From: a virus
Taxonomy: Duplodnaviria > Caudoviricetes
IMG/VR virus record: IMGVR_UViG_3300031912_000021
Span: 1-47,975 of that record
Reading direction: 5' to 3' (one strand)
DNA length: 47,975 nt
The notes below the pieces were generated by a model, which was given only the letters and a program-made list of their open reading frames with translations, ran no database searches and was not told where the DNA came from. Below, piece after piece: positions 5,227-39,072 of this stretch; position 1 is the first letter of the stretch; the number at the start of each line of letters is the position of its first letter. The position numbers and the translations under genes were made by a program.

Positions 5227-6495
5227 CTAATAACCCGATGGGAAGGCAAGCTGGTCGATGTACGCGGAACCGGCCGGCTTGTTCATAAAGATGTTGAACG
5301 ATGCTACGTAGTAGAAGACCCAACTCGTCGCTACACCACCGCTGGCGCCTCGGATCTCCCAGATGCGTTGATTATCATCAGGAGACATGTACATCCCAGG
5401 TGGTTTTAACTCCGCGCGGCCCCAATATTCAGCGTCAATGAAGTCTATCCGAGTTCGATCCCAACTGTACGAAATCTTGAGCGGCGCTCCGGCCATTCTC
5501 ATGTTATCGTTGAAATACAAATCTAAGCCTTCCTCTTTCGCTGCCTTATCGATGCGAATGACGTTAAATCCCAATTCCTCGTAGGCCGCCTGTTGAGCCT
5601 TGTGCATCCAAGCAGTACACTTGCTTCTGTAGTTTATCCCAACACGATCGCCGATCAGGTTCAGTGCTAGTCGGGGTAGAGGTAGGGTTAGCGCTGAACC
5701 TGCGGCGTTTACTCGATTGGCACGTATTTCAGGAGTGGTTGCTCTGGGAAACCCGAGCCACGTTCCAACCGAACTGTTTGAATTATGGTAAGGAACACCA
5801 TACATCCCGACTGGCGGGGAACTCGTTAATCCATCAGCAACAATCTTGTCACCGGCGATTACGCCGGTGACAGCCGGTGTCACTTGAACTTGTTTATTTG
5901 CGAGGTCATACTGAGTAATGACGTAAGGCCCGCCCGTTGCAGTCCTCAGAGTCACGTAAGTCGGATCAAAGACGTTGATCTGTTGTTTCGATCTCAGCAA
6001 TCTGACTCCGTAACCATCGGTCGTGCAAGTGTATGTATCAACACCACCCGCCGTTGTTACTGAAGTTATGGTCGCTAAGGTTCCCGTGCCGTCCGTCATA
6101 CATTGGCTGTCTACGTCTCTTCGGAACTGCGACATCTCGACAGCCAAAGCATGCCGAAAGCTATTCATCACGGCTTTCCGATTGCTATCCGTGGACCAAA
6201 TGTTCTTGGCCGTCATTTCCACCCGATGCACTAAATGCACCGAATGTATAACCGCCTTATCAAAATCAGAAATATCACCACGACCCAGATCACCACCGTC
6301 TGGGTTATAGTACCCCGTGTTCCCATTGGGCCTCAACTCTAACGGAATCCGCATGTCGCGCGATGATATTACTTCAACTGGCCGCTTTTCGAGAGAGCTA
6401 TAAAAGACATCATCTCGATCGAACAGAGCGGGCACTTTTGGCAGAACACGCTCAAGTTCTGTTCCAACTACTTGAAGCTCTAAACCTCCAGGCAC
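5227..6495 (-). CDS. Major capsid protein (HK97-type fold inferred)
   Basis: 422 aa, GTG start. Follows the scaffold-like gene and precedes a terminator; size and composition fit. Confidence 0.75.
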   Translation of the reverse strand: MPGGLELQVVGTELERVLPKVPALFDRDDVFYSSLEKRPVEVISSRDMRIPLELRPNGNTGYYNPDGGDLGRGDISDFDKAVIHSVHLVHRVEMTAKNIWSTDSNRKAVMNSFRHALAVEMSQFRRDVDSQCMTDGTGTLATITSVTTAGGVDTYTCTTDGYGVRLLRSKQQINVFDPTYVTLRTATGGPYVITQYDLANKQVQVTPAVTGVIAGDKIVADGLTSSPPVGMYGVPYHNSNSSVGTWLGFPRATTPEIRANRVNAAGSALTLPLPRLALNLIGDRVGINYRSKCTAWMHKAQQAAYEELGFNVIRIDKAAKEEGLDLYFNDNMRMAGAPLKISYSWDRTRIDFIDAEYWGRAELKPPGMYMSPDDNQRIWEIRGASGGVATSWVFYYVASFNIFMNKPAGSAYIDQLAFPSGY

Positions 6496-6506
6496 TTGTT
6501 ATACCC

Positions 6507-7709
6507 TCAATTCTTGTATTTGACTTCATCGTTGAGAATATCCAAGTCGCTAGTCTTCGAGTAGTCGATTCTTCTTGGGTTGTAGTCGAGACTCCTAGTA
6601 CCCGACGGGCGCCCGTTGCCAGACTCGGCTGTTCTGTTAGCGACGCTAGATACTCGCTTAATCTTCTCGGCACTGGCTGACGGACCTTTTCCATTCACCT
6701 CAGCCAAAAACTTCGATCGCAGAGAAGGGATTAGCGATTTAGCGCGCGCCAGATACGCGGATACCAACCTGGCCTTGTCTTCTTCGGTTCTCCCAGACTT
6801 CTTAGCCCGATCCCACAAACTGTCCATATACTTGATATGGTTGGTATCGGACTGTAATGTACTACCGACATTTTCAATGATCTTATCGGCAATAACGGAT
6901 TGCAAAAATGGACTCAAACCGTCTAACTTACCACCTTCGTTTATTAATCTCGACATCTCGCTTTGGATAGATCCTGCTACGCCACTCCGAAATGTCAGAT
7001 ATCGCTCGTTGTCGTATTTCTCACTCGCCTTCAATTCTGCGGCTCTCGCAGGATCAGGCTGCTTTACGAATGTTCTTTTCCCCTCAGCGACCAACAGATC
7101 GCCAAAAAAGAATTCTGCAAGATGGCGCGCCGCGTTCTGGATGTTCTGATCCCCATCCTTCACGCCCTTGTTGAACATATTCCGGCAAATATCTTCGATG
7201 AATGGATTCGCGGCCGACCAGAAAGCCTCGGGCCTTGTCCTCACCAAACTCGGGAAGATCTGCGGCGCGAATTCTTCCAATAGCTTCTCGTTATCCAGAA
7301 ACTTGAACAGATCATCGTTCTTGCCCTGCTCCAAACTCGATCTTAGACCCCGGTATATCTCAACATCTTTCGAGGCCTCCCGCGCGTCGTCGATAGTAGG
7401 GAATACCTTGGAAAACTCGGCCTCCCGAAAATACATGTCTCTGAGGCTCGGGAATGTCTTGAAAATCTCTGGATACTTCTCGTTGATTTGTTTTATCGAA
7501 GGTCGGTTGAACGGGTGCGCGACTTCGTATGGCTTCTCTTCGGTTTCAGGCTCAGCTTCTGGCTCGTCTTTATCGGGAGCGCCTTCGTTGGGCACCCCCG
7601 ATTGAATTTCGGACGTTTCTTTTTCCTCGGGCGCACCTCCTTCCTCCCCCTCTTCCAAGAGAGCAATATCATCCGAAATATCAGTCGTCGAGCCTTCGAT
7701 CTCAGGCAT
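6507..7709 (-). CDS. Capsid scaffolding protein
   Basis: 400 aa with a very acidic disordered N-terminus and helical body. Directly upstream of the capsid gene. Confidence 0.65.
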   Translation of the reverse strand: MPEIEGSTTDISDDIALLEEGEEGGAPEEKETSEIQSGVPNEGAPDKDEPEAEPETEEKPYEVAHPFNRPSIKQINEKYPEIFKTFPSLRDMYFREAEFSKVFPTIDDAREASKDVEIYRGLRSSLEQGKNDDLFKFLDNEKLLEEFAPQIFPSLVRTRPEAFWSAANPFIEDICRNMFNKGVKDGDQNIQNAARHLAEFFFGDLLVAEGKRTFVKQPDPARAAELKASEKYDNERYLTFRSGVAGSIQSEMSRLINEGGKLDGLSPFLQSVIADKIIENVGSTLQSDTNHIKYMDSLWDRAKKSGRTEEDKARLVSAYLARAKSLIPSLRSKFLAEVNGKGPSASAEKIKRVSSVANRTAESGNGRPSGTRSLDYNPRRIDYSKTSDLDILNDEVKYKN

Positions 7710-8958
7710 AAACCATCTCCTTAACCTTCTTATGCATTCCCCCGATTACCTTCGCCGCGTCTGTTCGATACTGCTTATCGGGGATTTTGGCTTTTTCAAG
7801 TATTCTATAAGGCTCGTTAAAGCTGCTGGCAATCGTATCAGCAACGTCAGATACGACTCCGATTGCTCCTGTACCTGCGCTGTGGTATAGGACACCGTCA
7901 GATTTAAGAACTTCGTATAAGTAGACTTTTGATTCGTTATCTTCAAATCCTCGGATTGGAACTCCATAATTCGGTTGTTCCCTCTCAATCACCTTCAAAT
8001 TATGTGGCTCGATTGGAAATGGCGGAATGCTCACCCGCACTCCCGAGGCAAACCCGCTCCGCAAGCTAATCTTACCCACACTCCCATCGATGAGATCCGA
8101 GATAGTCTGACCCACGTCCTCATCGGTCAGCTGTAACCAAGTCGGCATTGCATCTAGACCGAAGCGCGGTGTCCATTCCAGCCCATAAAACTGATCATCA
8201 ACAACCATAACATTGAGATCGATAGGCCCAATATAGCCCTGATCGAGAATATCATCCTCGATCTTCTTCAGCTTATCAACGATATCGTTTCTCTCCGCCT
8301 CCCAGATCGTGTTAGCAGAACAGCCTGTCGAGGGACCAAGGTTGTCATTCATGAATTTCTTGATCTCTATCGTATGAGTCGCGGGTTCCACGAATCCCCA
8401 TTTGCCGCAGAAGAATTCGGTACTCAACGCGGTCCCCTCAATGCATTCTTGCAGAATGAAACTCTCGATGTCGTAGTTTTTATCAACAAATTCCATGTAA
8501 TGCGCGAGATCATCGGGGTCACAAGGTTTGTATGTGAGCTTGGAAGGTAAGTCTCCAGATGGCTTAAAAATATAGTCTCCCCTATTATCCACAATAAAAT
8601 CTAAGCCGTCGCTTGTGCTCTCGAACTTCCGTGACGCAGGAATCTCTATTCCGTGCTCCTGCATGAACTCAAGCCCGAACTCTCGATCGTTCTCTAGCTT
8701 ATCCTGGAACTTCCCCGCGCCGAATACCTTGTGTCCCGACCTCTTGAGTTTATCAGCTTCCGAGCCCATCCCAGAAGAGTCGAAAACAATAATCGTCTCA
8801 TCATCGATATCCCGTATGCCGACCTTATCTAAGATACCGTCGTAAACCGTTCGATACTCTCGCTCCTTGATGTACAAACCTACAGTATTCCCCTCCTGCT
8901 CCAATCGAAGCCCAAGCCCCGCGCCCTCCCCATACTTGCTGTAAATGAGGAATCTCAA
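7702..8958 (-). CDS. Divergent PurD-like (GAR synthetase-like) ATP-grasp ligase
   Basis: Collinear PurD-like motifs: KLENDREFGLEFMQEHGIEIP, IFKP, QECIEG, NDNLGPSTG, LEWTPRFG, GVRVSIPPFP, QYRTD. TTG start overlaps the upstream stop; 3' end overlaps the scaffold start. Confidence 0.8.
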   Translation of the reverse strand: MRFLIYSKYGEGAGLGLRLEQEGNTVGLYIKEREYRTVYDGILDKVGIRDIDDETIIVFDSSGMGSEADKLKRSGHKVFGAGKFQDKLENDREFGLEFMQEHGIEIPASRKFESTSDGLDFIVDNRGDYIFKPSGDLPSKLTYKPCDPDDLAHYMEFVDKNYDIESFILQECIEGTALSTEFFCGKWGFVEPATHTIEIKKFMNDNLGPSTGCSANTIWEAERNDIVDKLKKIEDDILDQGYIGPIDLNVMVVDDQFYGLEWTPRFGLDAMPTWLQLTDEDVGQTISDLIDGSVGKISLRSGFASGVRVSIPPFPIEPHNLKVIEREQPNYGVPIRGFEDNESKVYLYEVLKSDGVLYHSAGTGAIGVVSDVADTIASSFNEPYRILEKAKIPDKQYRTDAAKVIGGMHKKVKEMVYA

Positions 8959-9551
8959 TGTTTGTGCGCCGTTTCTTTCTCGTGCTCTTTCTTGTCGTGC
9001 TCTTTCTTATCGTGCAACCAACCCAGACCATGCTTCTCAGGCTCAGGCTCGGGTTTAGGCTCAGGTAACGGCAACTGCTCCTCAACTTGCGCGCGCAATT
9101 CGTCCATCGCTGTTGGATAAGGATTGCTGGCATATGTCCAATACAGGTGCCCGAATACCGGTGAATCCTTCCGCACTTTTAGAACGGGAGATCCCTGACC
9201 AGCCACGTACATGTCGTTCTTCACCGCATTGGGAACTGTTTGCCGGTCGATAATCTCCGCGACATTCTCCTGCATAAATATTGACCCGGGCGCGCTCAAT
9301 CCCGCGGCTGGTGATCCATAACAGTCGTATCGGTAACAAGCCACGGTTGGTGCAGTTGGGTTTGCATACACGAAACCATAGCCCGGATCATAGATATACA
9401 TATTGGTATTGGTCCCCGGGCTTGGAGTCGTCGCGGCCTGGATGGTCGTGAGCATCGTTGTGCAATTGGCCGATGTGTTGAAGAGATACCACAGACTCGG
9501 GGGGACTTGCTGATTCTGTCCCACCGTAACTCCCGTTGGATAAGTAGTCAT
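8955..9551 (-). CDS. Hypothetical protein with PE-rich linker and His/Lys/Glu repeat tail
   Basis: 198 aa ending PEPKPEPEPEKHGLGWLHDKKEHDKKEHEKETAHKH. Confidence 0.7.
   Translation of the reverse strand: MTTYPTGVTVGQNQQVPPSLWYLFNTSANCTTMLTTIQAATTPSPGTNTNMYIYDPGYGFVYANPTAPTVACYRYDCYGSPAAGLSAPGSIFMQENVAEIIDRQTVPNAVKNDMYVAGQGSPVLKVRKDSPVFGHLYWTYASNPYPTAMDELRAQVEEQLPLPEPKPEPEPEKHGLGWLHDKKEHDKKEHEKETAHKH
8973..9016. repeat. ~15-bp tandem repeat encoding HDKKE/HEKE
   Basis: ttctttctcgtgc tctttcttgtcgtgc tctttcttatcgtgc. Confidence 0.7.
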
Positions 9552-9882: not shown

Positions 9883-12255
9883 TTATTTTCCGTTCCTTGG
9901 GACCGCGACTTGTGGCGGGTTGATCAGCCGTTCAGCAAGCCCGCGCTTAACTTCTTCCTGAGTCTTGATTTGCTCTTTCGACTTGTCCGCCGCCATCTTG
10001 CCCTGTGCCCGAGCCGACTCCCGCGCCATTTCTCGTTGAGTGTACATGGCTTGCATTTGCTGCATCTGCGCCTGAGTAGCAGCCTGCTGAATTTGCGTGA
10101 TTATTTGCTGATGCGCGCTCAAGTGCTGAGTTAACGCCTGATACCCTTGAGGGTTGGTCCTCTGGAGATCGATTCCCTTGGAGCTGACGAGAAACTCCTT
10201 GAGGGTCTGCATATGAACCTGATGATCATCCACGAGCGCCTCAGGCTGAATCTGTTGCCCGTTCAAGATCTCGTCGATCTCGACATTCTGCTTGATTCGC
10301 TGATCCTCGGTCGGGATAGTCAGATCCAAGAATCCCGTCAGGTCCGCTACCATCCTCTGATTCGCGGGGTCCATTAATATCCCCGTGATCACCTGACTGT
10401 TGAGTTCCAGAAACTTGAAGAACATCGCCTGTTTCTGTGGTAGACTCATCGGGAACTGCTCGCTGGGTTCCGGTTCGACCTCCCCAACGTGCCCCGTCAT
10501 CTCGGCTTTCCTGATCCATACATTTACGTAATTGTTCTTGTTTTCCGGGTCGGGAGTTGAAAACCGCTCATCGTCGATCATGTTCTCGACGTACAGATGA
10601 ACGCATTTCTCCATTAGCTTTGCCCAGAAGATCTGAAATAGATTCCAAACGATCTGCAACCGTTGCAGCGCATACTGCCGAGATTGCTGATATTCTCCCA
10701 ATGTCCGAGATGAGCCTTCACTCGGCCCGCCGTAGATCGCTGGATAACTACCAACAGAAAACTGCGAGTCCTGATCCAATCTATTGAAGAAATCCCCGAC
10801 CTCTTTGCTCAACGTGGCGCGCCCGCCCTCGAAGAAGGCATCTTTTAGGCTCTGCCCGGATTTCGGATGAACGGGATAAGCCATTCCCGGGCGCGCCTCG
10901 TGCTTAGAATAAACATCGAAGTTCAGGACTGATGAGTCAGCGAACATGCTTCCGATTCCCTGCTCGATTGTTTCAGCGGTAATATTGACCAATACATTTC
11001 GTAGTTCTTGTATCGAAATGAGGGGCTGCCCAATTGCGTCGCTATGAATATACGTGCTAAGACCACTCTTGGCGAGTGTCCAGTACTTATCCATGTCTTC
11101 GTCGCGGCTTTCAGCATACGTATTCCCAACGAAAGCAACATAAACCCCACTTGGAAATAGTTTATATAACCGCTTCTTCTCTTTTTCCTTTTCCTTAGGG
11201 AGTCCCTCAAATGCCCAAGTCCGCATCCATACCTGTTTGTGAGTGGCAAGATCTCGATTATCATCCGACCTGGAGAAAGCGGTGTAGCTTGAGGGAGTTC
11301 TAGCCATTCGTTCATATGCCTGAGCGTCTCCTTCATCATTCTCGATCTTATCCTCGATATGCTCGTAGATTGATCTCAGGAATGGCTTTGGCTGATCGAG
11401 GGCCTTTATCAAATAGCTACAATCTCCCTGCTTGCGCGCCCAATACGGAACCTTGACATGCAAGCCACCGAAAGTGTCTATCATGACCCGAGTCTTCGGG
11501 CTCTCTTGAAAGCCATCCAGAACCGTCGCGATCTCCATGGGCGCGCCGCAGTTTTTACAGTTGTGCAGACCTTCGAGCAAGTCTTCCTCATCATCCACGG
11601 GAGCTGATTCTCCGCAGGACGGGCAGCTCAAGACCTTTTTATAAGTCTCAATGTTGACCATCCCAAAAGCTTTGTCAGCCTTCGGCGCGTGGTACCAAGC
11701 TAGCAAGCCCTGATTCCACAAAACAAACAGGCTGGCGAACTGAAGAAGCTTGACCTGATTATGCCGACAAATGAGATCGACTATCTTCCCATAAGTCCTG
11801 GAGGTCTGAACGTCGTCGGCGTCTTCTGCGTTGTCTGGGGGGAATCGGACTGCTGGTACTTGGGCACTGAGGGCCGCGATGATTGCTTCTCCGTGAGCTT
11901 TGAATATGTTGACGACGAAATCGTAGAACGGCCCCTCGCTGCCCTCTCGTCCCTCTGTCTCAGCGAACCACCTGAGGCCGCTAGTGCCGATTGGCGCCAT
12001 CCAATCCTGTTTGGTTTCGGACCAAAAGATAAACTGAATTCCGTGCCAAAACTCTTCATTCTTCTTCCAGAGCTTAATTTGTTGCTTTCGGACCCAACTA
12101 TCTTCTTTTTCATATTTCTCCACAAGGAATTTTAAGCAATCCTTCAGCTCTTGCGGTAAATTGTGATTATTAGGGTCTTTATCTTTCTTCGCACGGTCGA
12201 TTATAGACGCGTCCGGTGGAAGATTAGTACCCAGATCGCTAGGAGCAGGGGTCAT
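9883..12255 (-). CDS. Portal protein
   Basis: 790 aa downstream of the terminase. Portal-like N-terminus (KNEEFWHGIQF, VVNIFKAHGEAIIAALSAQVP) and a Gln-rich C-terminal coil as in P22-like portals. Contains a CxxC...CxxC insertion. Confidence 0.8.
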   Translation of the reverse strand: MTPAPSDLGTNLPPDASIIDRAKKDKDPNNHNLPQELKDCLKFLVEKYEKEDSWVRKQQIKLWKKNEEFWHGIQFIFWSETKQDWMAPIGTSGLRWFAETEGREGSEGPFYDFVVNIFKAHGEAIIAALSAQVPAVRFPPDNAEDADDVQTSRTYGKIVDLICRHNQVKLLQFASLFVLWNQGLLAWYHAPKADKAFGMVNIETYKKVLSCPSCGESAPVDDEEDLLEGLHNCKNCGAPMEIATVLDGFQESPKTRVMIDTFGGLHVKVPYWARKQGDCSYLIKALDQPKPFLRSIYEHIEDKIENDEGDAQAYERMARTPSSYTAFSRSDDNRDLATHKQVWMRTWAFEGLPKEKEKEKKRLYKLFPSGVYVAFVGNTYAESRDEDMDKYWTLAKSGLSTYIHSDAIGQPLISIQELRNVLVNITAETIEQGIGSMFADSSVLNFDVYSKHEARPGMAYPVHPKSGQSLKDAFFEGGRATLSKEVGDFFNRLDQDSQFSVGSYPAIYGGPSEGSSRTLGEYQQSRQYALQRLQIVWNLFQIFWAKLMEKCVHLYVENMIDDERFSTPDPENKNNYVNVWIRKAEMTGHVGEVEPEPSEQFPMSLPQKQAMFFKFLELNSQVITGILMDPANQRMVADLTGFLDLTIPTEDQRIKQNVEIDEILNGQQIQPEALVDDHQVHMQTLKEFLVSSKGIDLQRTNPQGYQALTQHLSAHQQIITQIQQAATQAQMQQMQAMYTQREMARESARAQGKMAADKSKEQIKTQEEVKRGLAERLINPPQVAVPRNGK

Positions 12256-12257
12256 AT

Positions 12258-12710
12258 CTAAGCACTGTTCCTACAGGTTCTACACTCCCTCATGACACCG
12301 CTATTGCCATGACGGTATATAGTATTTCCTTCGTCGAAAAGATGACCATGTTTACAGAACTCCTTAACAGAGTTCAATGCAGCAACATTATCCTCTCCAT
12401 ACTTCAAGGAATCCATAATATTGTCACGTGGTGTTCCTATTTCCAAGTGGTCGGGATTCACACACGCTCGTGACTTGCAAATATCCATCTTATGACGTGA
12501 GACTACAGACTCATCATCTAATTCACCCAACTTACCAAAAGCCCACAAGGAAAGTCGAGGAACCCGATACTGCCTATAGTCTATCTTGAGTATTCCATAA
12601 CCTGAAGAATGTTTAGATCGAGTCCACAACCAACATCCATTCTCATCTACATGGGAGTATAGCTTGACCACTCCCTGGAGATACTCTCTATCTAGCCTGT
12701 GCCTACGCAT
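12258..12710 (-). CDS. HNH homing endonuclease
   Basis: GCWLW, GYG, RHKMDICKSRACVNPDHLEIGTPRDN, plus C-terminal CKHGH...RECRTC. Confidence 0.85.
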   Translation of the reverse strand: MRRHRLDREYLQGVVKLYSHVDENGCWLWTRSKHSSGYGILKIDYRQYRVPRLSLWAFGKLGELDDESVVSRHKMDICKSRACVNPDHLEIGTPRDNIMDSLKYGEDNVAALNSVKEFCKHGHLFDEGNTIYRHGNSGVMRECRTCRNSA

Positions 12711-12862
12711 CAGTAGTTTTTCCTCTGGCGCCCGAGGCCCATCATCTCAAGCCCGCGCTGGAACTTGTTAGTCTCTCCAGTCCTCAAATGCGGGCCGCTT
12801 GGAAGATGGGGCTTTTTTATCTTCAGCTTTGGCCCGACCTTTGGGATTCTTAGTTTCTTCAC
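12710..12862 (-). CDS. Small basic protein (50 aa)
   Basis: Not in the ORF track: [54 protein letters not shown] overlap upstream and TGATG overlap with the HNH start. Confidence 0.6.
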
Positions 12863-13035
12863 TTTTGACCTTCTTTTCCTTTTTTGTTTTTCTCATGTCC
12901 CATTCCCCCAATCTTAGATTTCCGCGCCGTGCTCATTGCAGCAGCTACAGCTTGACGTTGAGGATGACCAGATGCCATCATCTCCCGAATGTTCTCGCTG
13001 ATAACTTTCTTTCCTCCGCCCTTCTTGAGAGGCAT
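12859..13035 (-). CDS. Small basic phage protein (MPLKKG...ISENIREM...QAVA type)
   Basis: Likely start at ATG 13035, just after the upstream stop. This motif type is common next to phage terminase/portal genes. Confidence 0.7.
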
Positions 13036-15003: not shown

Positions 15004-15519
15004 CTACCCGATCTCAACGATCTTGAATCCCGATTCTTTCCTTAGCTCGGGCGCGTAGAGGACAAGATTGATTCGGCTATTCCTGTCCTCCTTGGGCATC
15101 GATCTTTCTACCACGGTCGCCATATTTCTAGCTACCGTTGATAGTGCAGTTGCATTCAAGTCTTGCAGTTTGTCTTCCGTGATAAGCCCTAGGCTCAACA
15201 TCAGTTTTTGCAGAGCCTTATCGCGCGCGGCGTCGAGGGCGTCCTGCACTCGGGCTTCGCTAATCTGGCCCCCAACGCCGCGCTCGATCTGAGAGACATT
15301 CTGTTGAGTCGTTTTGAACTCCTCAGCGAGAGATGTCTGAGTTTCCCCGAGTCTTGAGCGGATCGCGATTTCGGATCTCTGTTCTGTCGTCAATCCGAAA
15401 CTTCCCTCGGCTCTTCCTGGTCGTTGAATAGGAACGTGAGTGATTTTATTGCCGAAACGATTAGCGAGATTCTTCGGGTTCTCTAATCGCTTGATCGCTT
15501 GTTCCTGTGTGATGTTCAT
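15004..15519 (-). CDS. terS: Terminase small subunit candidate (HTH)
   Basis: HTH TQTSLAEEFKTTQQNVSQIERG followed by a helical oligomerisation region. Immediately upstream of terL. Confidence 0.65.
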   Translation of the reverse strand: MNITQEQAIKRLENPKNLANRFGNKITHVPIQRPGRAEGSFGLTTEQRSEIAIRSRLGETQTSLAEEFKTTQQNVSQIERGVGGQISEARVQDALDAARDKALQKLMLSLGLITEDKLQDLNATALSTVARNMATVVERSMPKEDRNSRINLVLYAPELRKESGFKIVEIG

Positions 15520-15971
15520 CTCAAGCTCACATTCTTCTTCAGTAATTCCACCGTGTTATCGAATGCTCTTTTGAGCAAATCAGGGTCGAGTTCCAATTGA
15601 TAAACTGTCCCACTGCGGGCCATTCCTGCCATGACGCAATCAACTATGTAATCCAGCACGTCGATCAAATTAACGTCTGGACGAATCCCGTCTTCATAGT
15701 TGATGTGATGTCGATTGAGTTGTCGATGTTTATCCCACCATTCGGTTCTCTCAAACCCGGTCAGGAAATCCCTGTGAAATCCCTCGATATCAGAAAGCTT
15801 GTCGAAATCATGGTTCTCGGCCGCTTTGCGGATTAGTGACTCAAAATATCTAAGACCTTCCTGAACGTCGTGGATGTGCTGCTTGGAACTATTCAGTAGG
15901 GTATCCAGGCTCACGTTCTTGAAATCACAAGTTCTGGTATCGGCCGTAGGGCTACTTTGGACGGTAATCAT
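15516..15971 (-). CDS. HD-like metal-dependent hydrolase (DUF5662-like)
   Basis: QHIHDV...NHDFDKL...KHRQLNRHH...DVLDYIVDC pattern. First gene after the late promoter. Confidence 0.6.
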   Translation of the reverse strand: MITVQSSPTADTRTCDFKNVSLDTLLNSSKQHIHDVQEGLRYFESLIRKAAENHDFDKLSDIEGFHRDFLTGFERTEWWDKHRQLNRHHINYEDGIRPDVNLIDVLDYIVDCVMAGMARSGTVYQLELDPDLLKRAFDNTVELLKKNVSLR

Positions 15972-19660: not shown

Positions 19661-19905
19661 TTCTCAAGAAATGCGCGGAATCCGGATGTGAGAATATGTT
19701 GCCCAAATCCTCACGCAAATATTGTTCGGTACATAATCAACCGAACGCGCGTTCCTATCAATTTGGCACAAAGAGCGGATATAGATTTGAGCTAAAAGAA
19801 CAAGGAATCTCGTTAATTGCACTGGTCTACCATCGAAACCATCTGATAGCTACTGAGTTTTACGAACCGGAAAAGAACAAATCAAGATCTAGGAGATTCG
19901 ATTGA
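19657..19905 (+). CDS. Zinc-finger early protein (paralog B)
   Basis: KKCAESGC...YCSVH; homologous to the C-terminal half of the upstream gene. Confidence 0.7.
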   Translation: MILKKCAESGCENMLPKSSRKYCSVHNQPNARSYQFGTKSGYRFELKEQGISLIALVYHRNHLIATEFYEPEKNKSRSRRFD

Positions 19906-20423
19906 ACCCGACTCAGACTAAACAACTCACGCTCGATTTAATGGGCCAACATAATCTATTGCCGCATTGGTCTTTTAAGTTCGACTCTACCCGTACCAGA
20001 TTCGGCCAGTGTCGGCATCACATCCAAGAGATCGGCATCTCACGATATCTCTCAGCAATGAATCAAACTCCGGAAGTCAAGGACGTTATCTTGCACGAGA
20101 TTGCACACGCTTTAGTTGGCCCGAATCACGGGCACGATTCGGAATGGCAAGCAAAAGCAGTTTCTATCGGAGCCTCGCCCAACAAGTATTACGACTCGGA
20201 AACTGTGAAACTGGCGAATCTGTACGACTTTTCATGCCCGAAGTGCGCCTTTAAGTACAGGGCAAATCGAATGCCCCCGAAGAACAGAAGATACGTCTGC
20301 CGACACGACCTAACTCCGCTAATTCTCGACAACGATCCACAAGAACAAGCAATAAAGCAATTCATGTTGACTCACGGCTGTTCTCGTGAAAAGGCCGAAC
20401 AAGCATTAACAGGAGACTTCTAA
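19902..20423 (+). CDS. SprT-like zinc metalloprotease
   Basis: RFGQC, ILHEIAH, HGHDSEW, followed by a CPKC...C zinc finger. TTG start. Confidence 0.85.
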   Translation: MNPTQTKQLTLDLMGQHNLLPHWSFKFDSTRTRFGQCRHHIQEIGISRYLSAMNQTPEVKDVILHEIAHALVGPNHGHDSEWQAKAVSIGASPNKYYDSETVKLANLYDFSCPKCAFKYRANRMPPKNRRYVCRHDLTPLILDNDPQEQAIKQFMLTHGCSREKAEQALTGDF

Positions 20424-21359: not shown

Positions 21360-22970
21360 TTGCCATTCACTAAACTGAAGTGCCCACGATGCAATAAGGT
21401 TGCAGAAACCCAAGCTGAGATAAAGGTCAACGGACGCCCGCACTTGTTTCTGAAGTGCGGCCATGTCATGGAGCAGCAACAACTCAAACTCACTGGGACC
21501 CATCCGGAAGAGATCACTTCGTTGGACGGTAAGAAGTTATTTCACTTTCAGAATGACGGAGTCAGATTCATCGAATCCAGTAACGCTCGATGTCTAGTCG
21601 GGGATGAAATGGGTCTAGGCAAGACAGTTCAGGCACTAGCTTTTTTGCTGATGCACCCCGAGAATCGCCCATTCCTATGGATTGGGAAGTCCTCACTAAA
21701 GTACCAATATCAATACGAAGTAATGCGCTGGATGGGGGAAGAACATTTCGCCCAGGTATTGGATGGAGGCCGCGACAAACTCATTCCGGGATTTGTCGGG
21801 CACATTGTCAGCTACGATCTTCTACGAAACATGAAGAAAGAGTTTTCGATGCTCGAACAATGCAAGAAAGTTGGCATCAAGACTCTCATTCTTGACGAGT
21901 GCCAACAGATAAAGAACTCACAATCTCAGCGCACCGCATTCACGCGCGAGTTAGCGCGCGTGATTCCCCACGTCATTGCGCTCTCTGGAACGCCGATAAA
22001 GAACCACGCGGGCGAGTTCTTTCCAGTGCTGAACATCATTCGACCAGACATCTACTCGAACGAAAGCCGATTCCTGATGAACAAATGCTCGACCTACTGG
22101 AACGGCTACACTTGGAAAACTGGTGGTCTTGCAGACCCTAAGAGATTCCATGAAGAAACCAAGAACTATATCATTCGGCGCGAGCGCGCGGAAGTCCTGC
22201 CCGACCTCCCGAAAGTGCAACGATCATTCACGTTCGCCCAGGAACTCGGGAAGAAGGTTGAAGCCGAGTATATCAGGGAGTTCAAGGAATTCCGAACAGC
22301 CTACAATTCAAAAGGTTGGGAAGGTGAATTTGACAATGATCCAGACAGCCCACCAGACTCAACGATAGCCCGACTCTCCAGACTGAGGCATCTGGTTGGT
22401 TGGGCGAAGATCGACCCCTGTATTGATTTCTGTATGGAGTTCTTGGGATCGACCGACCGAAAGCTAACGATCTTCACACATCACAAAGACGTATCAGAGA
22501 CTCTAGTAGAAAAGCTCAATTCCGTTCTTCATGAACTGGAACTCGAACCCGCGCTCTATTTGCACGCGGGTTTGGATTCCGAACGGCGCTACGATTTGGT
22601 GAACAAGTTCCGAGACTCCAAACTAACGCGCATTATGGTAGCCTCCACGCTGGCAAGTGGGGAGGGCCTGAACTTGCAATTCTGTTCAGATTGCATTCTA
22701 CTAGAGCGCCAATGGAATCCAGCCAATGAGGAACAAGCTGAGGGCCGATTCCCCCGACCGGGCTCGACCGCATCATCAATAGCCGCTACCTACTTTACCG
22801 CAGTTGGAACCGTTGACGAATTCTTTGCCGAGATTGTTGAGAAGAAACGGGAGATCGTCCACAACACCCTGAATAAGAACGGTGAAGCCCTACCTTGGGA
22901 CCAATCTTCGATAATGAAGGAATTAGCCGAAACCCTAGCATCTTTAGGTGGTCGGAAATGGAGCATCTAA
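21360..22970 (+). CDS. SNF2-family (HARP-like) helicase/ATPase
   Basis: GDEMGLGKT, LILDECQ, LSGTP, GEGLNLQ, WNPANEEQAEGR; N-terminal zinc ribbon. Confidence 0.9.
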   Translation: MPFTKLKCPRCNKVAETQAEIKVNGRPHLFLKCGHVMEQQQLKLTGTHPEEITSLDGKKLFHFQNDGVRFIESSNARCLVGDEMGLGKTVQALAFLLMHPENRPFLWIGKSSLKYQYQYEVMRWMGEEHFAQVLDGGRDKLIPGFVGHIVSYDLLRNMKKEFSMLEQCKKVGIKTLILDECQQIKNSQSQRTAFTRELARVIPHVIALSGTPIKNHAGEFFPVLNIIRPDIYSNESRFLMNKCSTYWNGYTWKTGGLADPKRFHEETKNYIIRRERAEVLPDLPKVQRSFTFAQELGKKVEAEYIREFKEFRTAYNSKGWEGEFDNDPDSPPDSTIARLSRLRHLVGWAKIDPCIDFCMEFLGSTDRKLTIFTHHKDVSETLVEKLNSVLHELELEPALYLHAGLDSERRYDLVNKFRDSKLTRIMVASTLASGEGLNLQFCSDCILLERQWNPANEEQAEGRFPRPGSTASSIAATYFTAVGTVDEFFAEIVEKKREIVHNTLNKNGEALPWDQSSIMKELAETLASLGGRKWSI

Positions 22971-23353
22971 TGCGAATCAACATTGGAGCAATACCTCACA
23001 TCTTCCAGCGTTACAATACGCTGGGAGATTGGCAGTTCTATGATAATGATGGAACCCTAACAATCCGAGTCTCTGACACGGGAGACTATCGAATGAACGC
23101 GGCGCTCGCGATCCACGAATTCGCTGAGGCAATTTTGTGCAAAGCCCGAGGAATCACCCAACAGCAAGTTGACAGATGGGATCTCGCGCACCTAGAAGAT
23201 CCCGACCCAGGGAGTATCGAAGGTTGCCCATATCACGATCAACATATAGGGGCAGCAATAATCGAAAACATTTTCCTGAAGATGTTAGGAATTAAAGACG
23301 CAGAATACGACGAAAGGACTTTAAAATGCCAACAATCGACTCAGAGCAGCTAA
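22970..23353 (+). CDS. HExxE-motif putative metalloprotein
   Basis: Start at ATG 22970 (TAATG overlap); QRYNTLGDW, AIHEFAE, PYHDQH. Confidence 0.65.
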   Translation: MRINIGAIPHIFQRYNTLGDWQFYDNDGTLTIRVSDTGDYRMNAALAIHEFAEAILCKARGITQQQVDRWDLAHLEDPDPGSIEGCPYHDQHIGAAIIENIFLKMLGIKDAEYDERTLKCQQSTQSS

Positions 23354-27638: not shown

Positions 27639-28832
27639 ATGCAAATAAAATTATCTGACATCAAAATTCCGGAGACGGTCAAAAAAGACGAAAAGTATGA
27701 GCTTATTAAGAAGTCTATTGAGGAGCACGGGCTATTCCATCAGGTCTTACTTCAAGGGACGAATCCGCCATATTCAGTATTGGCTGGAAGACGACGTTTA
27801 GCTGTCTTTCAGGATCTAGGGAGGGAAACTATAGAAGCCGAGATATTTCCCGAGGGTGAAGCGCGCGAGATCTCACTGCACGAGAATCTTCGCAGGAATA
27901 ACCTAAGCTGGTACGATCAAGTTGAGCTAGAGAAAGAACTGCACGATCTACGAATACAGCAACATGGCCCAAAGAAACCCGGGCGCCCGTTTGCGGGAGT
28001 CACCGAAGGCTGGTCGAAAGTGGAGACGGCGCGCGAGTTAGGGCTATCTGTAGGAGGATTGCACCAGGATATCGAACTGGCCGAGGCTCTGCTGCGAAAC
28101 CCCGAACTCCGAAATCTGAAAGACAAGGGAACCGCTCTCCGCCTGATAAAGCAGGCGAAGGCAAGACGAGAAAATGAGATCTCTGCTTTAATGCCAACGG
28201 ATGACATGAATCAAGTCTACTTGGGAGATTCCGTTGATATCCTAAAGCATCTCAAGCCTGATACATTCGATGCCTGCATAACCGATCCCCCATGGTCAGA
28301 GTACAAGGATGAAGGCGTCCCCCAGGAATCCCTGCTGCCAATCTTCAGAGAAATTTATCGCGCGCTCAAGCCAAACTCATTTCTCTATGTCATCACAAGT
28401 TCGACAGATTTCTATTTCTATAGAGAAAAGCTAACTTACATGGGATTTGAAATCCAGAAGTACCCGATAATCTGGCACAAAACCCGCACGTTAACCCACG
28501 GGCGCGCGATCTGGCAATACGCGCGGGATTATGAACCGATCCTCGTTGCGGTCAAAGGGAAACCATCTCTAGCCATGGGAGTTGAAACGTCTTCCATTCT
28601 GACATATGAAAACGTCACCCCATCGGCAATGGCGCATCCCCACGAGAAACCCGTTGCCCTTCTGATCAAGATTATGCAGCAATGCACGTACCAAGGAGCG
28701 AATATTCTTGATCCATTTGCTGGATCTGGAGTTGTCGGGCAGGCCGCGAAGCAGACAGGCCGGAATTACATATTAATCGAGAAGGATGCCAAATATTACG
28801 AACAAATTCAAAGGAGACTCAAGTGGTTTTAG
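27639..28832 (+). CDS. ParB-like domain fused to a beta-class N6A/N4C DNA methyltransferase
   Basis: VLAGRRRL and ENLRR (ParB); ITDPPW (motif IV), HPHEKP, LDPFAGSG (motif I). Confidence 0.9.
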   Translation: MQIKLSDIKIPETVKKDEKYELIKKSIEEHGLFHQVLLQGTNPPYSVLAGRRRLAVFQDLGRETIEAEIFPEGEAREISLHENLRRNNLSWYDQVELEKELHDLRIQQHGPKKPGRPFAGVTEGWSKVETARELGLSVGGLHQDIELAEALLRNPELRNLKDKGTALRLIKQAKARRENEISALMPTDDMNQVYLGDSVDILKHLKPDTFDACITDPPWSEYKDEGVPQESLLPIFREIYRALKPNSFLYVITSSTDFYFYREKLTYMGFEIQKYPIIWHKTRTLTHGRAIWQYARDYEPILVAVKGKPSLAMGVETSSILTYENVTPSAMAHPHEKPVALLIKIMQQCTYQGANILDPFAGSGVVGQAAKQTGRNYILIEKDAKYYEQIQRRLKWF

Positions 28833-28839
28833 GAGAATA

Positions 28840-29046
28840 ATGACTATGACTATAGACGTGATATCCAGACTCAGCCAAATAATTTCTGAAGTTGAAATTA
28901 CAACAGAAATAAACGAAACCTCAGAATACGATGAAAGAAGAGAGATATCTAAAGCCCTCAGATTAGCTATCGGTCAATTGAAAGTGGCGCGCACGACTCT
29001 AATAAAGGCGGCGCGGGTTTTCGGGAATATAGGAGACCCAAATTGA
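28840..29046 (+). CDS. Hypothetical helical protein
   Basis: AGGAG RBS before ATG 28840; TTGA overlap with the polymerase start. Confidence 0.6.
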   Translation: MTMTIDVISRLSQIISEVEITTEINETSEYDERREISKALRLAIGQLKVARTTLIKAARVFGNIGDPN

Positions 29047-31499
29047 TTTACGTAGGAGGTGAGGGACCATCCAATGCACAACTTGCCGCCGTTGGAGAAG
29101 CGCCCGGAGGAGAAGAGGAAGATCAGCAACGACCGTTCGTCGGGGCTTCAGGAAAACTATTCAATAAGACTCTAAGTGAAGCGGGAGGTTCTAGGGAATC
29201 TATCTATGTAACGAATGTCGTAAAGGTAAGACCACCGAGCAATAAGATCAAGGATCTCCATTTAATCGGCCGAACGATAGAAGAGTTCATTCCTCAACTG
29301 GAAAACGAGATGCGCGCGCTCAAGCCGAATTGTATACTCGCCCTCGGCGCAACAGCATTAGAGGCACTAACAGGGAAGAAGGGAATCGAGAAGCACCGAG
29401 GCTCAATATTGCCCTGTAGATTCGGTCCATATAAAGTCGTCCCCACGATCCATCCGGCTTCTCTATTACACAGCGAAGCCGAAGGCAAGATGCATTCTTG
29501 GAAAGATCTCACCTATATTCGTTGGGACATAGAGCGCGCGCTTTTAGAGTCTCAAACTCCCGAATATTGCCCGCCGCAACGGAATTTGCAAATCGCCAAA
29601 AACGCGCAACAGCTATACAGTTTCCTCAAGCATAGCGGCCAATATTGTTCAGTGGACATTGAGACCTTCCGAACGATCCCCATCTGTATTTCATTAGCCT
29701 TCAATTGTTGCGATGCAATCTCAGTGCCGCTCATGTACCCTCCGGGAATAGATAAGATCATGACCGACGAAGATCAGACAGACTGCTGGTATCAGGTAGC
29801 TCAGGTTCTAGCTGACTTAGACATCCTGAAGATAGGCCAGAACTTCAAGTTCGATGAGAAGCAGTTAATGACCTGTCTAGATGGCAAGATGCACATCAAT
29901 CTGAAGGTTCGTAGTTTTTTCTTTGACACTCTGTTAGCTTTCCGTGTGCTGTACCCCGAACTACCGGGCGCGCTTCAGTTCTCAACTTCCGTTCTAACAA
30001 AGGAGCCATATTACAAAGATGAAGGGAAAGAATATAACCCGAAGAGAGACAGGTTTGACAGACTACTTCTCTATAACGCCAAAGATGCTGCCGTCACTTA
30101 TGAAGTATTTGAGCGGGAAAGCGAAGAACTTAAAAATCGAGGCTTGGAAGAGTTCTTCTATCGGGAAATCATGCCTCTACATTACTTTTACTCCCGAATC
30201 GAGTCACGGGGAATTCTTCGAGACGATAAGTCAAGATCCGAACTCCGCGCGAAATACATGATGCAATGGGAAGATCTGCAAGACGAGCTAAACCTGCTCA
30301 CTTCCGAGTACCTTCCCGAACCCGTTAACGTCATGTCCAATTCAGCCAAGGGAGATATCCCAAAACTGATATACGGCTACATGAAATGCCCCGCGCGCAA
30401 GGGAGTAGACGACCAAACTTTAGATGCTCTCCGGCGTAACGCGATTAAGGATCAAACCAAAAAGCGGATTTTAGAATTGATTCCGTTAATTAGAAAGGTG
30501 AGAAAAACCATTGGAACATACATCGACGCTAATGTTGACTATAGAGGAAGACTCTGCACTGGATATAGAATTGCACTGGAAACAGGCCGAACATCAACCA
30601 GTGTTCTTAAAGCTCCAGTTGTCACCGAGCCTATGGGAATCGCTTTCCAAACAATTACAAAGCATGGGGACGTTGGAGCAGACATGCGAAGGATGTTCGT
30701 GCCTGACCCTGGTTACGCCTTTATCGAGCCAGACCTCAATGGTGCTGAGGCGCGCGTTGTGGCAATTCTTGCAAATGACCTTCGACTTATCAAGGCTTTC
30801 AAGTACAACGTGGACATTCATAGACTCACTAAAGCATGGATAGATTTCAATTCACCGGACGATCTTTTAAGCCAATTCTGGGAGAGTACTAATGATAGAG
30901 AAACTGCCTCACTCGCGCGTCAGATCAATTCCATCCTCAAAGTTGCGATTAGTGATGAGGAACGTCAACTCGGCAAAAAGTTTAGGCACGCCGCAAATTA
31001 CGCAATGGGGAAACGAGAAGCTGCCGTTCAAGCTAATATCAGCGAATACAAAGCGGCGCGCATTCTGGAAGCCATTCACAAGACCAACCCGAACATTCAA
31101 CAGGTTTTTCACAAGGAAATACAAGAGACTCTGGCTGAGAACGGTCGTAGACTTATGTCTCCGAACGGCAGAGAGCGTCTCTTCCTCAACCAATGGGGCG
31201 ACGAACTTTTTAAGGAAGCTTACGCTCAGATTCCTCAGAGTACTGTTTCTGATCAGACCAAGCAGGCCGCGCGCATGGTCGAACGTCGTTTGCCATGGGT
31301 ACAGATATTGGTTGAATGTCACGATTCGTTTCTATGCCAGGTACCGATCGCGCGCGTGGATGAAACTATTCCAGTAATCAGGGAAGAACTAGAGCGACCG
31401 ATAGATTTCTCAAGATGTTCTTTGCCGCGTGGCGCTTTAGTTATTCCCTGCGAAATCAAGATTGGTGATAAGAATTGGGAGGAGATGTGCAAAATTTAG
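29043..31499 (+). CDS. polA: Family A DNA polymerase with N-terminal uracil-DNA glycosylase (family 4-like) and 3'-5' exonuclease domains
   Basis: UDG motifs GEAPG, PFVGASG, TNVVK.RP, HPA. Exonuclease motifs DIET, QNFKFD, YNAKD. Polymerase motifs TGRTS, DLNGAEAR, RQLGKKFRHAANY, CHDS. Confidence 0.92.
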   Translation: MIYVGGEGPSNAQLAAVGEAPGGEEEDQQRPFVGASGKLFNKTLSEAGGSRESIYVTNVVKVRPPSNKIKDLHLIGRTIEEFIPQLENEMRALKPNCILALGATALEALTGKKGIEKHRGSILPCRFGPYKVVPTIHPASLLHSEAEGKMHSWKDLTYIRWDIERALLESQTPEYCPPQRNLQIAKNAQQLYSFLKHSGQYCSVDIETFRTIPICISLAFNCCDAISVPLMYPPGIDKIMTDEDQTDCWYQVAQVLADLDILKIGQNFKFDEKQLMTCLDGKMHINLKVRSFFFDTLLAFRVLYPELPGALQFSTSVLTKEPYYKDEGKEYNPKRDRFDRLLLYNAKDAAVTYEVFERESEELKNRGLEEFFYREIMPLHYFYSRIESRGILRDDKSRSELRAKYMMQWEDLQDELNLLTSEYLPEPVNVMSNSAKGDIPKLIYGYMKCPARKGVDDQTLDALRRNAIKDQTKKRILELIPLIRKVRKTIGTYIDANVDYRGRLCTGYRIALETGRTSTSVLKAPVVTEPMGIAFQTITKHGDVGADMRRMFVPDPGYAFIEPDLNGAEARVVAILANDLRLIKAFKYNVDIHRLTKAWIDFNSPDDLLSQFWESTNDRETASLARQINSILKVAISDEERQLGKKFRHAANYAMGKREAAVQANISEYKAARILEAIHKTNPNIQQVFHKEIQETLAENGRRLMSPNGRERLFLNQWGDELFKEAYAQIPQSTVSDQTKQAARMVERRLPWVQILVECHDSFLCQVPIARVDETIPVIREELERPIDFSRCSLPRGALVIPCEIKIGDKNWEEMCKI

Positions 31500-37625: not shown

Positions 37626-38711
37626 TTAGCCCTTTATTCCAGCGGCCGCCGCGCCAACTCCCTGACCAAGCTCCGCAATATCCTTGAAGATCTTGTCAGT
37701 CAAGCCAGGTTGAGAGGACAAATTAGCAAGGACTTGACTTGCTGACAGTGACGTACTAGCGTCTAGACCAATGCTCTGCAAGATCTGGTTAATGTCACTA
37801 GCAGACTTACCAGCGAACATATTGAACAGGTTAGCCATTTGAGCATTAGCCGACGTTACACCACCGGCAACTCCAGTCTCCAAACCTGCCGCCTGACCGA
37901 ATCCCTGTTGTCTCCCTGCCGCTAATCCAGCCTGTTGAGTCGCTTGTTGACCCAATCCTTGCATTTTTAAAGCTGCCTGCTGACCAGCAACCCCACCCAA
38001 TATACCAGCCCCAGACTGTGCTAGTTTAGCCACGTCAGATTCAGTCATCTGCAAGCCACCTAGACCTGCTAACTTATTGGCCGTTATCTGTTGTTGCAAT
38101 CCTGATCTAGCAGCAATATCAGCCTGCGCGGTCGATTGCGCGCCCTGTCTCGCCATCTGTGAAATCGCGGCCGCGCCCGATCCACCTCCCTGCTGTGCCG
38201 CTTCTCGAGCCTCCGCGCCTAAGACGCTATAAGCTCCACTGACCCCTGATGTTGCTGTATTGAGATAATTAGAAATGTCCTGAGGAGTGAATCCTCCAGA
38301 CTGAGCCATGCTCGTATAGCCCTGTCTAATGTTGGATAGACTCGTCGGGTCATAGGTAGCTCCACTCCCTGATACGACCTTCGCCAGTAAAGTCGGGTCA
38401 AATCCACCAGTCGTAGTCGCGCCCTGCGTGTCGCTGTACAGATTAGCCCACTGCGCGGGATCGTATCCTCCCCACTCCGTTAAGCCTTTTCCTTGACCCC
38501 TCAAGTACTGAAGTTGTGTAGGATCAAATCCACCCGAAGCTTGACCCGCCGCCGTCCCCGACATCGCCATTCCCCCGGCTATATCGGCACTAGCCTGATC
38601 GAGGTTGTAACGACCCTCTAACCCCGTCGTTACGGGAGCTAGCGCGCCAGTGATCCTATTGGCTGTGCCCGAGGCCAAGTTACCACTTAAATTCTTATTA
38701 GTGTTGCCCAT
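37626..38711 (-). CDS. Gly/Ala/Gln-rich DNA pilot/ejection protein
   Basis: Repeats GGFDPTQL, GGYDPAQW, GGFDPTLL, ATYDPTSL, GGFTPQDI; amphipathic C-terminus. Confidence 0.6.
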   Translation of the reverse strand: MGNTNKNLSGNLASGTANRITGALAPVTTGLEGRYNLDQASADIAGGMAMSGTAAGQASGGFDPTQLQYLRGQGKGLTEWGGYDPAQWANLYSDTQGATTTGGFDPTLLAKVVSGSGATYDPTSLSNIRQGYTSMAQSGGFTPQDISNYLNTATSGVSGAYSVLGAEAREAAQQGGGSGAAAISQMARQGAQSTAQADIAARSGLQQQITANKLAGLGGLQMTESDVAKLAQSGAGILGGVAGQQAALKMQGLGQQATQQAGLAAGRQQGFGQAAGLETGVAGGVTSANAQMANLFNMFAGKSASDINQILQSIGLDASTSLSASQVLANLSSQPGLTDKIFKDIAELGQGVGAAAAGIKG

Positions 38712-39072
38712 TATGCTTCCACATTAGAGAATGACCTATACGGTAATCGAAACCAAAATGTTGAACTAACACATTGGCAAAGTCCCTGTTAGGGGTATAG
38801 ACATGAGTCTCCGTTATTCCCTGATTCAACCCCATTCTTATTAGCCACGGAGTTAACTCTCTTATAGCTTCCAACTTTTCACGCTGTGAAAGCTTCCTGT
38901 CTAAGATGAGGGAAAGCTCACTAGATTCGTGAACCCAAAACGAACCCTGGAGCTTTCCCCCTGTCTCGACCGATCCACTGATGAGCGCGCGTTTCCCCCG
39001 GAGATTATCAACAGGGAAAGTCGCACTGCTCTCCAATGCGGCAAGATCGGCCAAGGTGAATCCCCTGATCAC
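38698..39072 (-). CDS. GNAT-like virion assembly protein (T7 gp13 / P22 gp14 position)
   Basis: MIRGFTLADL N-terminus and VQHFGF C-terminal motif; directly before the ejection genes. Confidence 0.5.
   Translation of the reverse strand: MIRGFTLADLAALESSATFPVDNLRGKRALISGSVETGGKLQGSFWVHESSELSLILDRKLSQREKLEAIRELTPWLIRMGLNQGITETHVYTPNRDFANVLVQHFGFDYRIGHSLMWKHNGQH

Follow-up and report, generated by a model that had tools for sequence, protein, structure and literature searches.

The virus record IMGVR_UViG_3300031912_000021 (Caudoviricetes; 47,975 bp, complete-looking with CheckV 100%), analysed here over its whole length (the window), encodes among its virion genes a 418-aa protein, P0001. The protein is predicted to have the whole-length fold of PurD, the phosphoribosylamine-glycine ligase of purine biosynthesis (EC 6.3.4.13; TIGR00877; PF01071, PF02843; PDB 2YW2, 2QK4, 2XCL, 5VEV). 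Its residues mark it as a probable ATP-grasp amide ligase that falls outside PurD. We tentatively propose that it joins an amino acid to a small amine of the polyamine type, a reading that we consider plausible but short of probable. To the initial annotation of this genome, which described the gene as a repurposed purD, the present analysis adds controls from phages without the ligase, a cellular branch of the family, an argument from charge and a test of basic peptides as substrates. Neither the cellular members nor a small HExxE protein often found with the ligase (the partner, Z) figured in that annotation. Ligase and partner are small, soluble-looking proteins open to direct assay.

A predicted PurD-like fold outside PurD

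A single-sequence search with the ligase retrieved four PurD structures at E ~1e-4. With a profile of 120 sequences eleven matches were obtained, all of them PurD (best 84 bits), and E reached 7e-23 for the Bacillus subtilis and Aquifex aeolicus enzymes. The AlphaFold model of the ligase (pLDDT 93.2, pTM 0.91) has the N, A, B and C domain architecture of PurD, PurT and PurK. The 15 best rows of a Foldseek search with this model are all PurD (E 1e-26 to 1e-22, TM 0.69-0.79, 14-20% identity), and the full-length likeness to glycinamide ribonucleotide synthetase noted in the initial annotation is thus far beyond chance. The next tier consists of PurK and biotin carboxylase (E ~1e-17), which score below PurD and form amides through an acyl phosphate, as proposed here for the ligase.

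The TIGR00877 model gives the ligase 50.6 bits against a cut-off of 288, and no ligase model of NCBIfam reaches its cut-off. The ligase has no match in Pfam or PHROGs, a library of predicted viral structures held nothing closer than remote ATP-grasp proteins (best E 1e-9, TM 0.47), and none of 50,697 cultured phage records matched it. Phylogenies were built with FastTree (96 rows, half of the phage rows being left out) and IQ-TREE (32 rows), with PurD sampled from two phyla and no outgroup. In both trees PurD occupies one side of a long branch (100/100). Grouping of family I, the branch of the window ligase, with acidobacterial PurD was rejected in IQ-TREE by the approximately unbiased (AU) test (p 7e-5), so the comparison with cellular PurD proposed earlier speaks against nesting within the two phyla sampled. 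Since the PurD sample covers two phyla and has no outgroup, descent from PurD and a sister relationship to it both fit the tree.

To compare active sites, we used an alignment of 96 phage family-I, 30 family-II, 14 cellular and 18 PurD rows (17 of the latter in the profile). Residue roles were transferred to the ligase by motif from PMC8449271, whose available part names the residues credited with phosphoribosylamine and glycine binding in PurD; the PurD mechanism is treated in PMC8880213, also available in part. All motifs quoted in the initial annotation are present: YSKYGEG at 6-12, IFKP at 130-133, QECIEG at 170-175, IEIKK at 197-201, GPSTGCSA at 208-215, EWTPRFG at 261-267 and RFGLDA at 265-270. 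The ligase shares with PurD the ATP lysines and acid, the metal ligand Glu261, Arg265, the acid-x-Lys motif, the GPxTG loop and the YRxD end; among the kept residues are R92, K132, Q170/E171, K200, E261 and R265. R92, K132, E198, N249 and R265 are invariant in 110 of 110 diverse rows, and E261 is conserved in 99%.

All four residues credited with phosphoribosylamine binding are changed in the ligase. The P-loop Arg and Glu of the GxGGRE motif, found in 17/17 PurD rows, are replaced by E11 and G12, and position 11 is acidic in 68% of the 96 phage family-I rows and in 79% of the 110 wider rows. In place of R[LF]GDPE the ligase has RFGLDA, with L/Y268 in the Asp column and Ala in the Glu column. 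The Arg of the C-domain GGRV motif, also found in 17/17 PurD rows and equated by motif with Arg427 of the published description, is A365 in the ligase and A, V or Y in the family. The glycine site retains Lys200 and Arg265, with Glu198 in place of Asp and D247 (98-99%) in place of the PurD Tyr/Phe beside the glycine ammonium; E198, K200 and R265 are conserved at 98-100%. The acid of the PurD GPE motif is kept as D60 (97%). The ligase has further gained Asn249 in place of Gly, and E-x-N of PurD has become E-x-T (Asn to Thr263); position 249 presumably corresponds to the metal ligand of biotin carboxylase and carbamoyl-phosphate synthetase. The earlier statement that the ATP-grasp core is kept therefore holds for the ATP residues but not for E-x-T and the gained Asn249 and Asp247. 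Likewise, the substrate-side motifs, described as changed, are so on the phosphoribosylamine side, whereas the amino-acid side is partly kept (D-H-K to E-x-K, Arg265).

These results bear on whether the gene could be an auxiliary metabolic purD still making glycinamide ribonucleotide. PurD is its closest structure, and many of its relatives bear the source-database label phosphoribosylamine-glycine ligase; hundreds of divergent phage proteins labelled PurD could be counted as purine auxiliary genes, and viral PurD is listed under purine metabolism in the accessible part of PMC12043954. Yet the window ligase and its family fail each sequence test of PurD: the TIGR00877 score is far below the cut-off, the four phosphoribosylamine-site residues are changed, and the proteins lie outside the sampled PurD. 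The ligase lacks the host-like sequence and intact active site by which an auxiliary metabolic gene is recognized, and no second purine-pathway gene was seen among the window proteins scanned (sets of 17, 28 and 14, partly overlapping; small open reading frames (ORFs) not all scanned). A metabolic role is barely credible, and the protein appears to be, as first suggested, a repurposed ligase that has kept the PurD fold.

The pocket changes, read from the alignment, are accompanied by an overall acidity. The ligase has a net charge of -6.2 per 100 aa (pI 4.7), and no other of the 20 window proteins with at least 200 aa is as acidic; the median net charge per 100 aa is -5.0 and -5.7 for the family, -1.2 in PurD and -8.8 in the partner. 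This disfavours another earlier suggestion, that the ligase modifies packaged DNA or nucleotides; a late DNA-modifying gene is known in mom of phage Mu. In favour of such a target, an enzyme of a nucleotide pathway is either the ancestor or the sister of the ligase, and the partner gene of the window is coupled to a helicase gene. However, ligase and partner are both strongly acidic, both phosphate-binding arginines are lost, and no nucleotide-modification enzyme recurs with the ligase, which makes such a target very unlikely.

From the partly kept amino-acid site and the lost phosphoribosylamine residues we infer that an amino acid is still activated and is passed to a phosphate-free, probably cationic amine. 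By analogy with other ATP-grasp enzymes, the amide would be formed in an ATP-dependent manner via an acyl phosphate. Cys213 was considered as a catalytic residue and rejected: it is 90% conserved in family I but is Glu in cellular members, and its loop is absent in family II, so it is not required.

Distribution of the ligase and its HExxE partner

Among 5215 candidates, 773 proteins matched the ligase family. An exhaustive search yielded 688 clusters (50% identity, E up to 1e-30; 150 listed, rows not checked one by one). In the Atlas clusters of the family, viruses account for 69-97% of those members that have a record. The family consists of two deep branches, family I and the deeply divergent family II (400-460 aa, with its own motifs). 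The clade of the window ligase includes ligases of 117-132 kb phages that have another portal. Five long relatives (P0286, P0302, P0319, P0326, P0335) carry intein-like inserts of ~330-400 aa with LAGLIDADG or intein Pfam matches. The inserts interrupt three catalytic motifs (before the GPxTG Cys, after EFTPR and after EAT), three of the five lying directly before the Cys213 equivalent, which points to long-term selection on the active site. In P0257 a HAD-like domain is fused to the C-terminus of the ligase, and in locus L015 a HAD gene (11277-11615) is inserted directly after it. Inside a 638-kb contig of a gammaproteobacterial assembly (L163) lies what looks like an entire phage virion module, the ligase included, possibly a prophage and a clue to the host.

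We examined the ligase neighbourhoods in the best 80 of 162 viral loci, gene labels being partly inferred from sequence. The ligase is co-oriented with virion genes in the 80 loci, at differing places: between portal and scaffold in ~24, between terminase and a different portal in 12 (phages of the 117-132 kb type) and among presumed tail and ejection genes in ~42, with two unclear. The placement of ligase relatives in virion-gene operons, for which the initial annotation had called for a survey, is thus borne out. A set of 28 genomes was made up of the window together with 27 phage records, complete or almost so, that had been chosen because they carry ligase or partner. In this set the ligase accompanies four capsid clusters without BLAST matches to one another, and nine records fall outside these clusters.

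The capsid family of the window served as a control. It was found in 59 loci (one spurious row being dropped from 60). The ligase is present at this place in 11 of them and missing there from the other 48, many of which are near-copies. None of 19 such records without the ligase at the locus (none of nine near-complete ones) holds ligase or partner anywhere, although the same queries match in the ligase and partner record sets. A control set drawn for the second head type consisted of near-copies only and was left out. Since both proteins are missing from phages that share the head genes of the window, we regard the ligase as accessory and mobile, not as an enzyme of head assembly or cross-linking. 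Cross-linking of capsid, scaffold or portal during head maturation, which the initial annotation had considered, would explain the coupling to the scaffold gene here and in the ~24 loci. The control records, the other positions with unrelated head genes and the partly kept site for a small amino acid render it extremely unlikely.

Proteins of the partner family are 125-130 aa long and have invariant H10, Y15, G19-D20, H49-E50-x-x-E53, D71, P87-Y88, H92 and E99. The motif is HExxE, not HExxH, in 18/18 and 43/43 rows, and an invariant His and an invariant Glu follow further along the chain. The partner gene of the window lies on the strand opposite to the ligase and 14 kb away from it, its ATG sharing 1 nt with the stop of the helicase gene; in many of the 80 ligase loci the partner lies beside the ligase. 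Of 48 ligase records, 22 contain the partner, as do 16 of the 32 near-complete ones. Conversely, the ligase is present in 45 of 46 records picked for the partner (32/32 near-complete), with the bias that three of these records overlap the ligase set and the query descends from ligase-linked seeds; 17 of these 45 ligases belong to family I, and 28, with weak matches, to family II. In a set of 80 partner loci, no more than 60 nt separate the two genes in 50 cases and up to 1 kb in another 13; the ligase is more distant in four and outside the stretch in 13 (41, 7, 4 and 11, respectively, in 63 non-redundant loci).

Across the 28 genomes the partner is found in 21, a count inflated by selection, and the next commonest family, DNA polymerase, in 15. 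No second enzyme recurs with the ligase across this set, and therefore the substrates are probably host-made. Among neighbouring genes (87 entries for 86 distinct proteins, selected by hand and for the most part from 180 candidate neighbour clusters) only scattered lysis, fibre, nuclease, HAD and glycosyltransferase genes were found.

The partner model (pLDDT 95) weakly resembles small zincins: PprI (Z 5.1, rmsd 3.8, 78 aligned), selecase (Z 5.0, rmsd 3.0, 81 aligned) and abylysin. Z scores of this size are also reached by common arrangements, but zincins make up many of the top rows. The nearest named Atlas cluster is Peptidase_M78 at 0.79. We consider the partner likely to bind metal and, in view of this weak fold match, likely to be a metal hydrolase acting on the same amide that the ligase would make.

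We searched 401 genomes from the phylum to which a Terracidiphilus assembly belongs, taken here to be Acidobacteriota, and obtained 15 genomes with a ligase match under E 1e-100. One of them holds short phage-like contigs; in the other 14 the ligase has non-phage neighbours, and these cellular ligases branch within family I, ruling out a phage-only family. The family points to an amide made by soil-type phages and some Acidobacteria. Seven of the 14 loci, forming one clade, have, in this order, a major facilitator superfamily (MFS) transporter, the ligase and an AmpG/RhtX-like transporter that scores below the AmpG and RhtX cut-offs. A class-III aminotransferase is encoded just upstream in six of the seven, preceded by a flavin amine oxidoreductase in two. 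Downstream of one cellular ligase come a Peptidase_Mx gene and a Ddl-like ligase. No match at E 1e-60 was found in 400 further Pseudomonadota genomes. The operon of the clade (L219, L220, L223, L225-L228) begins with a peptidase, a molybdopterin oxidoreductase, a cytochrome c peroxidase-like protein and a SnoaL-like protein, these four recognized by the look of their sequences, and continues with the amine oxidoreductase, the aminotransferase and the transporter-flanked ligase.

Candidate acceptors of the amino acid

With the sugar-phosphate-binding residues of PurD gone, an amine acceptor other than phosphoribosylamine is likely, and the charge changes suggest that it is probably cationic. 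In the reaction that we favour, the ligase would use ATP to form the acyl phosphate of an amino acid, as expected of the ATP-grasp family, and transfer the activated amino acid to a small, non-phosphorylated, positively charged amine made by the host, such as a polyamine. The cellular operons and the movement among unrelated head types argue for a small molecule. Coupling to head genes would place the reaction late in infection, and the partner may hydrolyse or supply the amide. We speculate that the polyamine pool is thereby tuned or neutralised during packaging or before lysis. In P. aeruginosa, phage replication is inhibited by polyamines that lysis sets free, according to the available part of PMC9992862. 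In a broader, rather doubtful version, ligase and partner would form a widespread, mobile two-enzyme phage system: the ligase would aminoacylate polyamines, or basic peptides sharing the head, late in infection, and the HExxE metalloenzyme would reverse this, controlling genome-condensing cations or disarming the polyamine alarm of lysis.

Several observations weigh against transfer to a polyamine. The acidic pocket would suit a Lys-rich peptide equally well. A SpeD-type decarboxylase, considered as a general partner, was seen in one of 80 records, below the cut-off, and not at all in a motif scan, although divergent forms may have escaped the search of the records. Half of the near-complete ligase phages have no detectable partner; the partner model, whose best Z score is that of a weak fold match, gave nothing under E 0.5 in Foldseek; and no partner gene occurs in the stretches read around the cellular ligases. 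The cellular pocket also differs (Leu at position 11, Glu at C213), and the seven cellular operons, being one clade, count as one observation.

Alternatively, the pair could write and erase a mark on protein, the ligase attaching an amino acid to the amines of Lys or of the N-terminus in small basic peptides of the virion (or in a host protein) and the zincin-like partner removing it. A basic peptide of 45-87 aa (net charge at least +8, at least nine Lys) is encoded in the terminase-portal interval of 19/19 ligase loci of this head type and of 0/14 ligase-less loci, but this contrast tracks capsid phylogeny. In another phage group small basic peptides are encoded directly upstream of the ligase. 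The enzyme and its pocket are acidic, the partner resembles small zinc proteases (PprI, selecase, abylysin), and the Peptidase_Mx gene follows one cellular ligase. On the other hand, the peptide family of the window is very common (~3100 stretches in IMG/VR), and none of 25 such records carries the ligase; with a strict filter, 13 of 27 ligase genomes have basic peptides encoded on the same strand as the ligase and just as many (13 of 27) on the opposite one, so there is no enrichment; and the peptides fall in several unrelated families. As a general rule, a basic-peptide substrate was therefore rejected, not being upheld beyond one or two phage groups, and a protein target as a whole seems possible but doubtful.

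Amidation of an amino sugar or of another envelope or glycan component, on the host surface or a virion glycan, was also considered. The acceptor of PurD is itself an amino sugar, and the GPE acid is kept; some family-II phages have glycosyltransferase and sugar-methyltransferase genes just upstream of the ligase, and the cellular ligases precede the AmpG-like transporter. This transporter, however, is below the cut-offs, and no glycosyltransferase was found among the window proteins scanned or recurs across the 28 genomes, so that we judge a glycan acceptor unlikely.

Among related chemistries, L-amino-acid ligases, PGM1 and glutathionylspermidine synthetase are ATP-grasp-related enzymes that form an amide via an acyl phosphate. 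Tubulin tyrosine ligase and MATCAP form a pair of ligase and metallopeptidase; the likeness lies in an ATP-grasp ligase with a zincin-like partner, but the ligase belongs to a different clade and the partner here has HExxE, not HExxH. From PurD itself the ligase is set apart by 14-19% identity, by loss of the P-loop Arg and Glu, the RFGD Asp, its Glu and the GGRV Arg, by the changes to Asp247, Asn249 and Thr263, by far greater acidity, and by its virion operons and HExxE partner. The haloarchaeal PurD-like proteins rrnAC0307 and Hlac_1553 were judged not to be PurD on loss of the R[LF]GDPE Asp and the P-loop, and the available part of PMC3261824 gives no function for them; as described there, they show the same losses as the ligase. 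Phage R2K ATP-grasp peptide ligases, predicted to aminoacylate proteins, belong to another clade, and neither PurD nor glycinamide is mentioned in the part of PMC7824862 at hand. Virus-encoded spermidine N-acetyltransferase and acetylpolyamine amidohydrolase add acyl groups to polyamines and take them off (PMC9992855, available in part); unlike the ligase they use acetyl-CoA chemistry, and the word ligase is absent from the main text of that paper. No published description of the ligase family was found in a search that left out subscription papers and supplements, where it might be listed.

Genome context and other observations

On the minus strand of the window the order is terminase, small ORFs, HNH, presumed portal, a 104-aa gene, the 198-aa gene, ligase, presumed scaffold and major capsid protein. 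The ligase TTG, at the same place as the start in relatives, overlaps the stop of the upstream gene by 4 nt, and its stop overlaps the ATG of the downstream gene by 8 nt, so the coupling to both neighbours noted initially is confirmed. The presumed scaffold and portal have no library match and are named from position and size.

Features of the window mentioned in the text, with strand and assignment
Feature	Position	Strand	Remarks
PurD-fold ATP-grasp ligase P0001	7702..8958	-	family I; 418 aa; TTG start
Partner Z	22970..23353	+	127 aa; HExxE ... PY..H..A...E; predicted minimal zincin-like fold
198-aa gene	8955..9551	-	coupled upstream of ligase; no library match; in most relatives not at this place
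400-aa acidic gene	6507..7709	-	coupled downstream of ligase; scaffold presumed by position
Major capsid protein	5227..6495	-	phrog_14242, E 1.4e-10
790-aa gene	9883..12255	-	after terminase; portal presumed by position and size
58-aa Lys-rich peptide	12859..13035	-	phrog_2423; candidate acceptor only if basic peptides are the target
50-aa Lys-rich peptide	12710..12862	-	coupled to 58-aa peptide; candidate acceptor only if basic peptides are the target
Weak DUF5662 protein	15516-15971	-	
SprT-like metalloprotease	19902-20423	+	
ParB-methyltransferase fusion	27639-28832	+	
Family-A DNA polymerase	29043-31499	+	N-terminal uracil-DNA glycosylase domain
GNAT-looking gene	38698-39072	-	124 aa; among presumed ejection genes; no library match

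The two coupled Lys-rich ORFs between terminase and portal (12710-13035) may encode DNA-condensing head peptides. The peptides of 41-99 aa encoded directly upstream of the ligase in L045-L081, L087-L089, L119, L137 and L139 have a conserved helix-like N-terminus and a variable Gly/Ser/Lys-rich tail; they look precursor-like or head-targeted and have no PHROG match. In family-II phages (L097, L104, L108, L117, L138, L145, L152, L154), the terminase and the portal-like gene are separated by blocks of genes for glycosyltransferases and sugar methyltransferases, which may serve virion glycosylation. In a group of loci (L059, L063, L065, L069, L054, L075) QueC-, QueE- and FolE-looking genes accompany the ligase and suggest a possible 7-deazaguanine modification of DNA. 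Many fibre- or decoration-like genes beside the ligase (L006, L007, L008, L012, L022, L034, L036, L040, L083, L094, L096 and others) start with a signal-peptide-like stretch, which is unusual for virion proteins.

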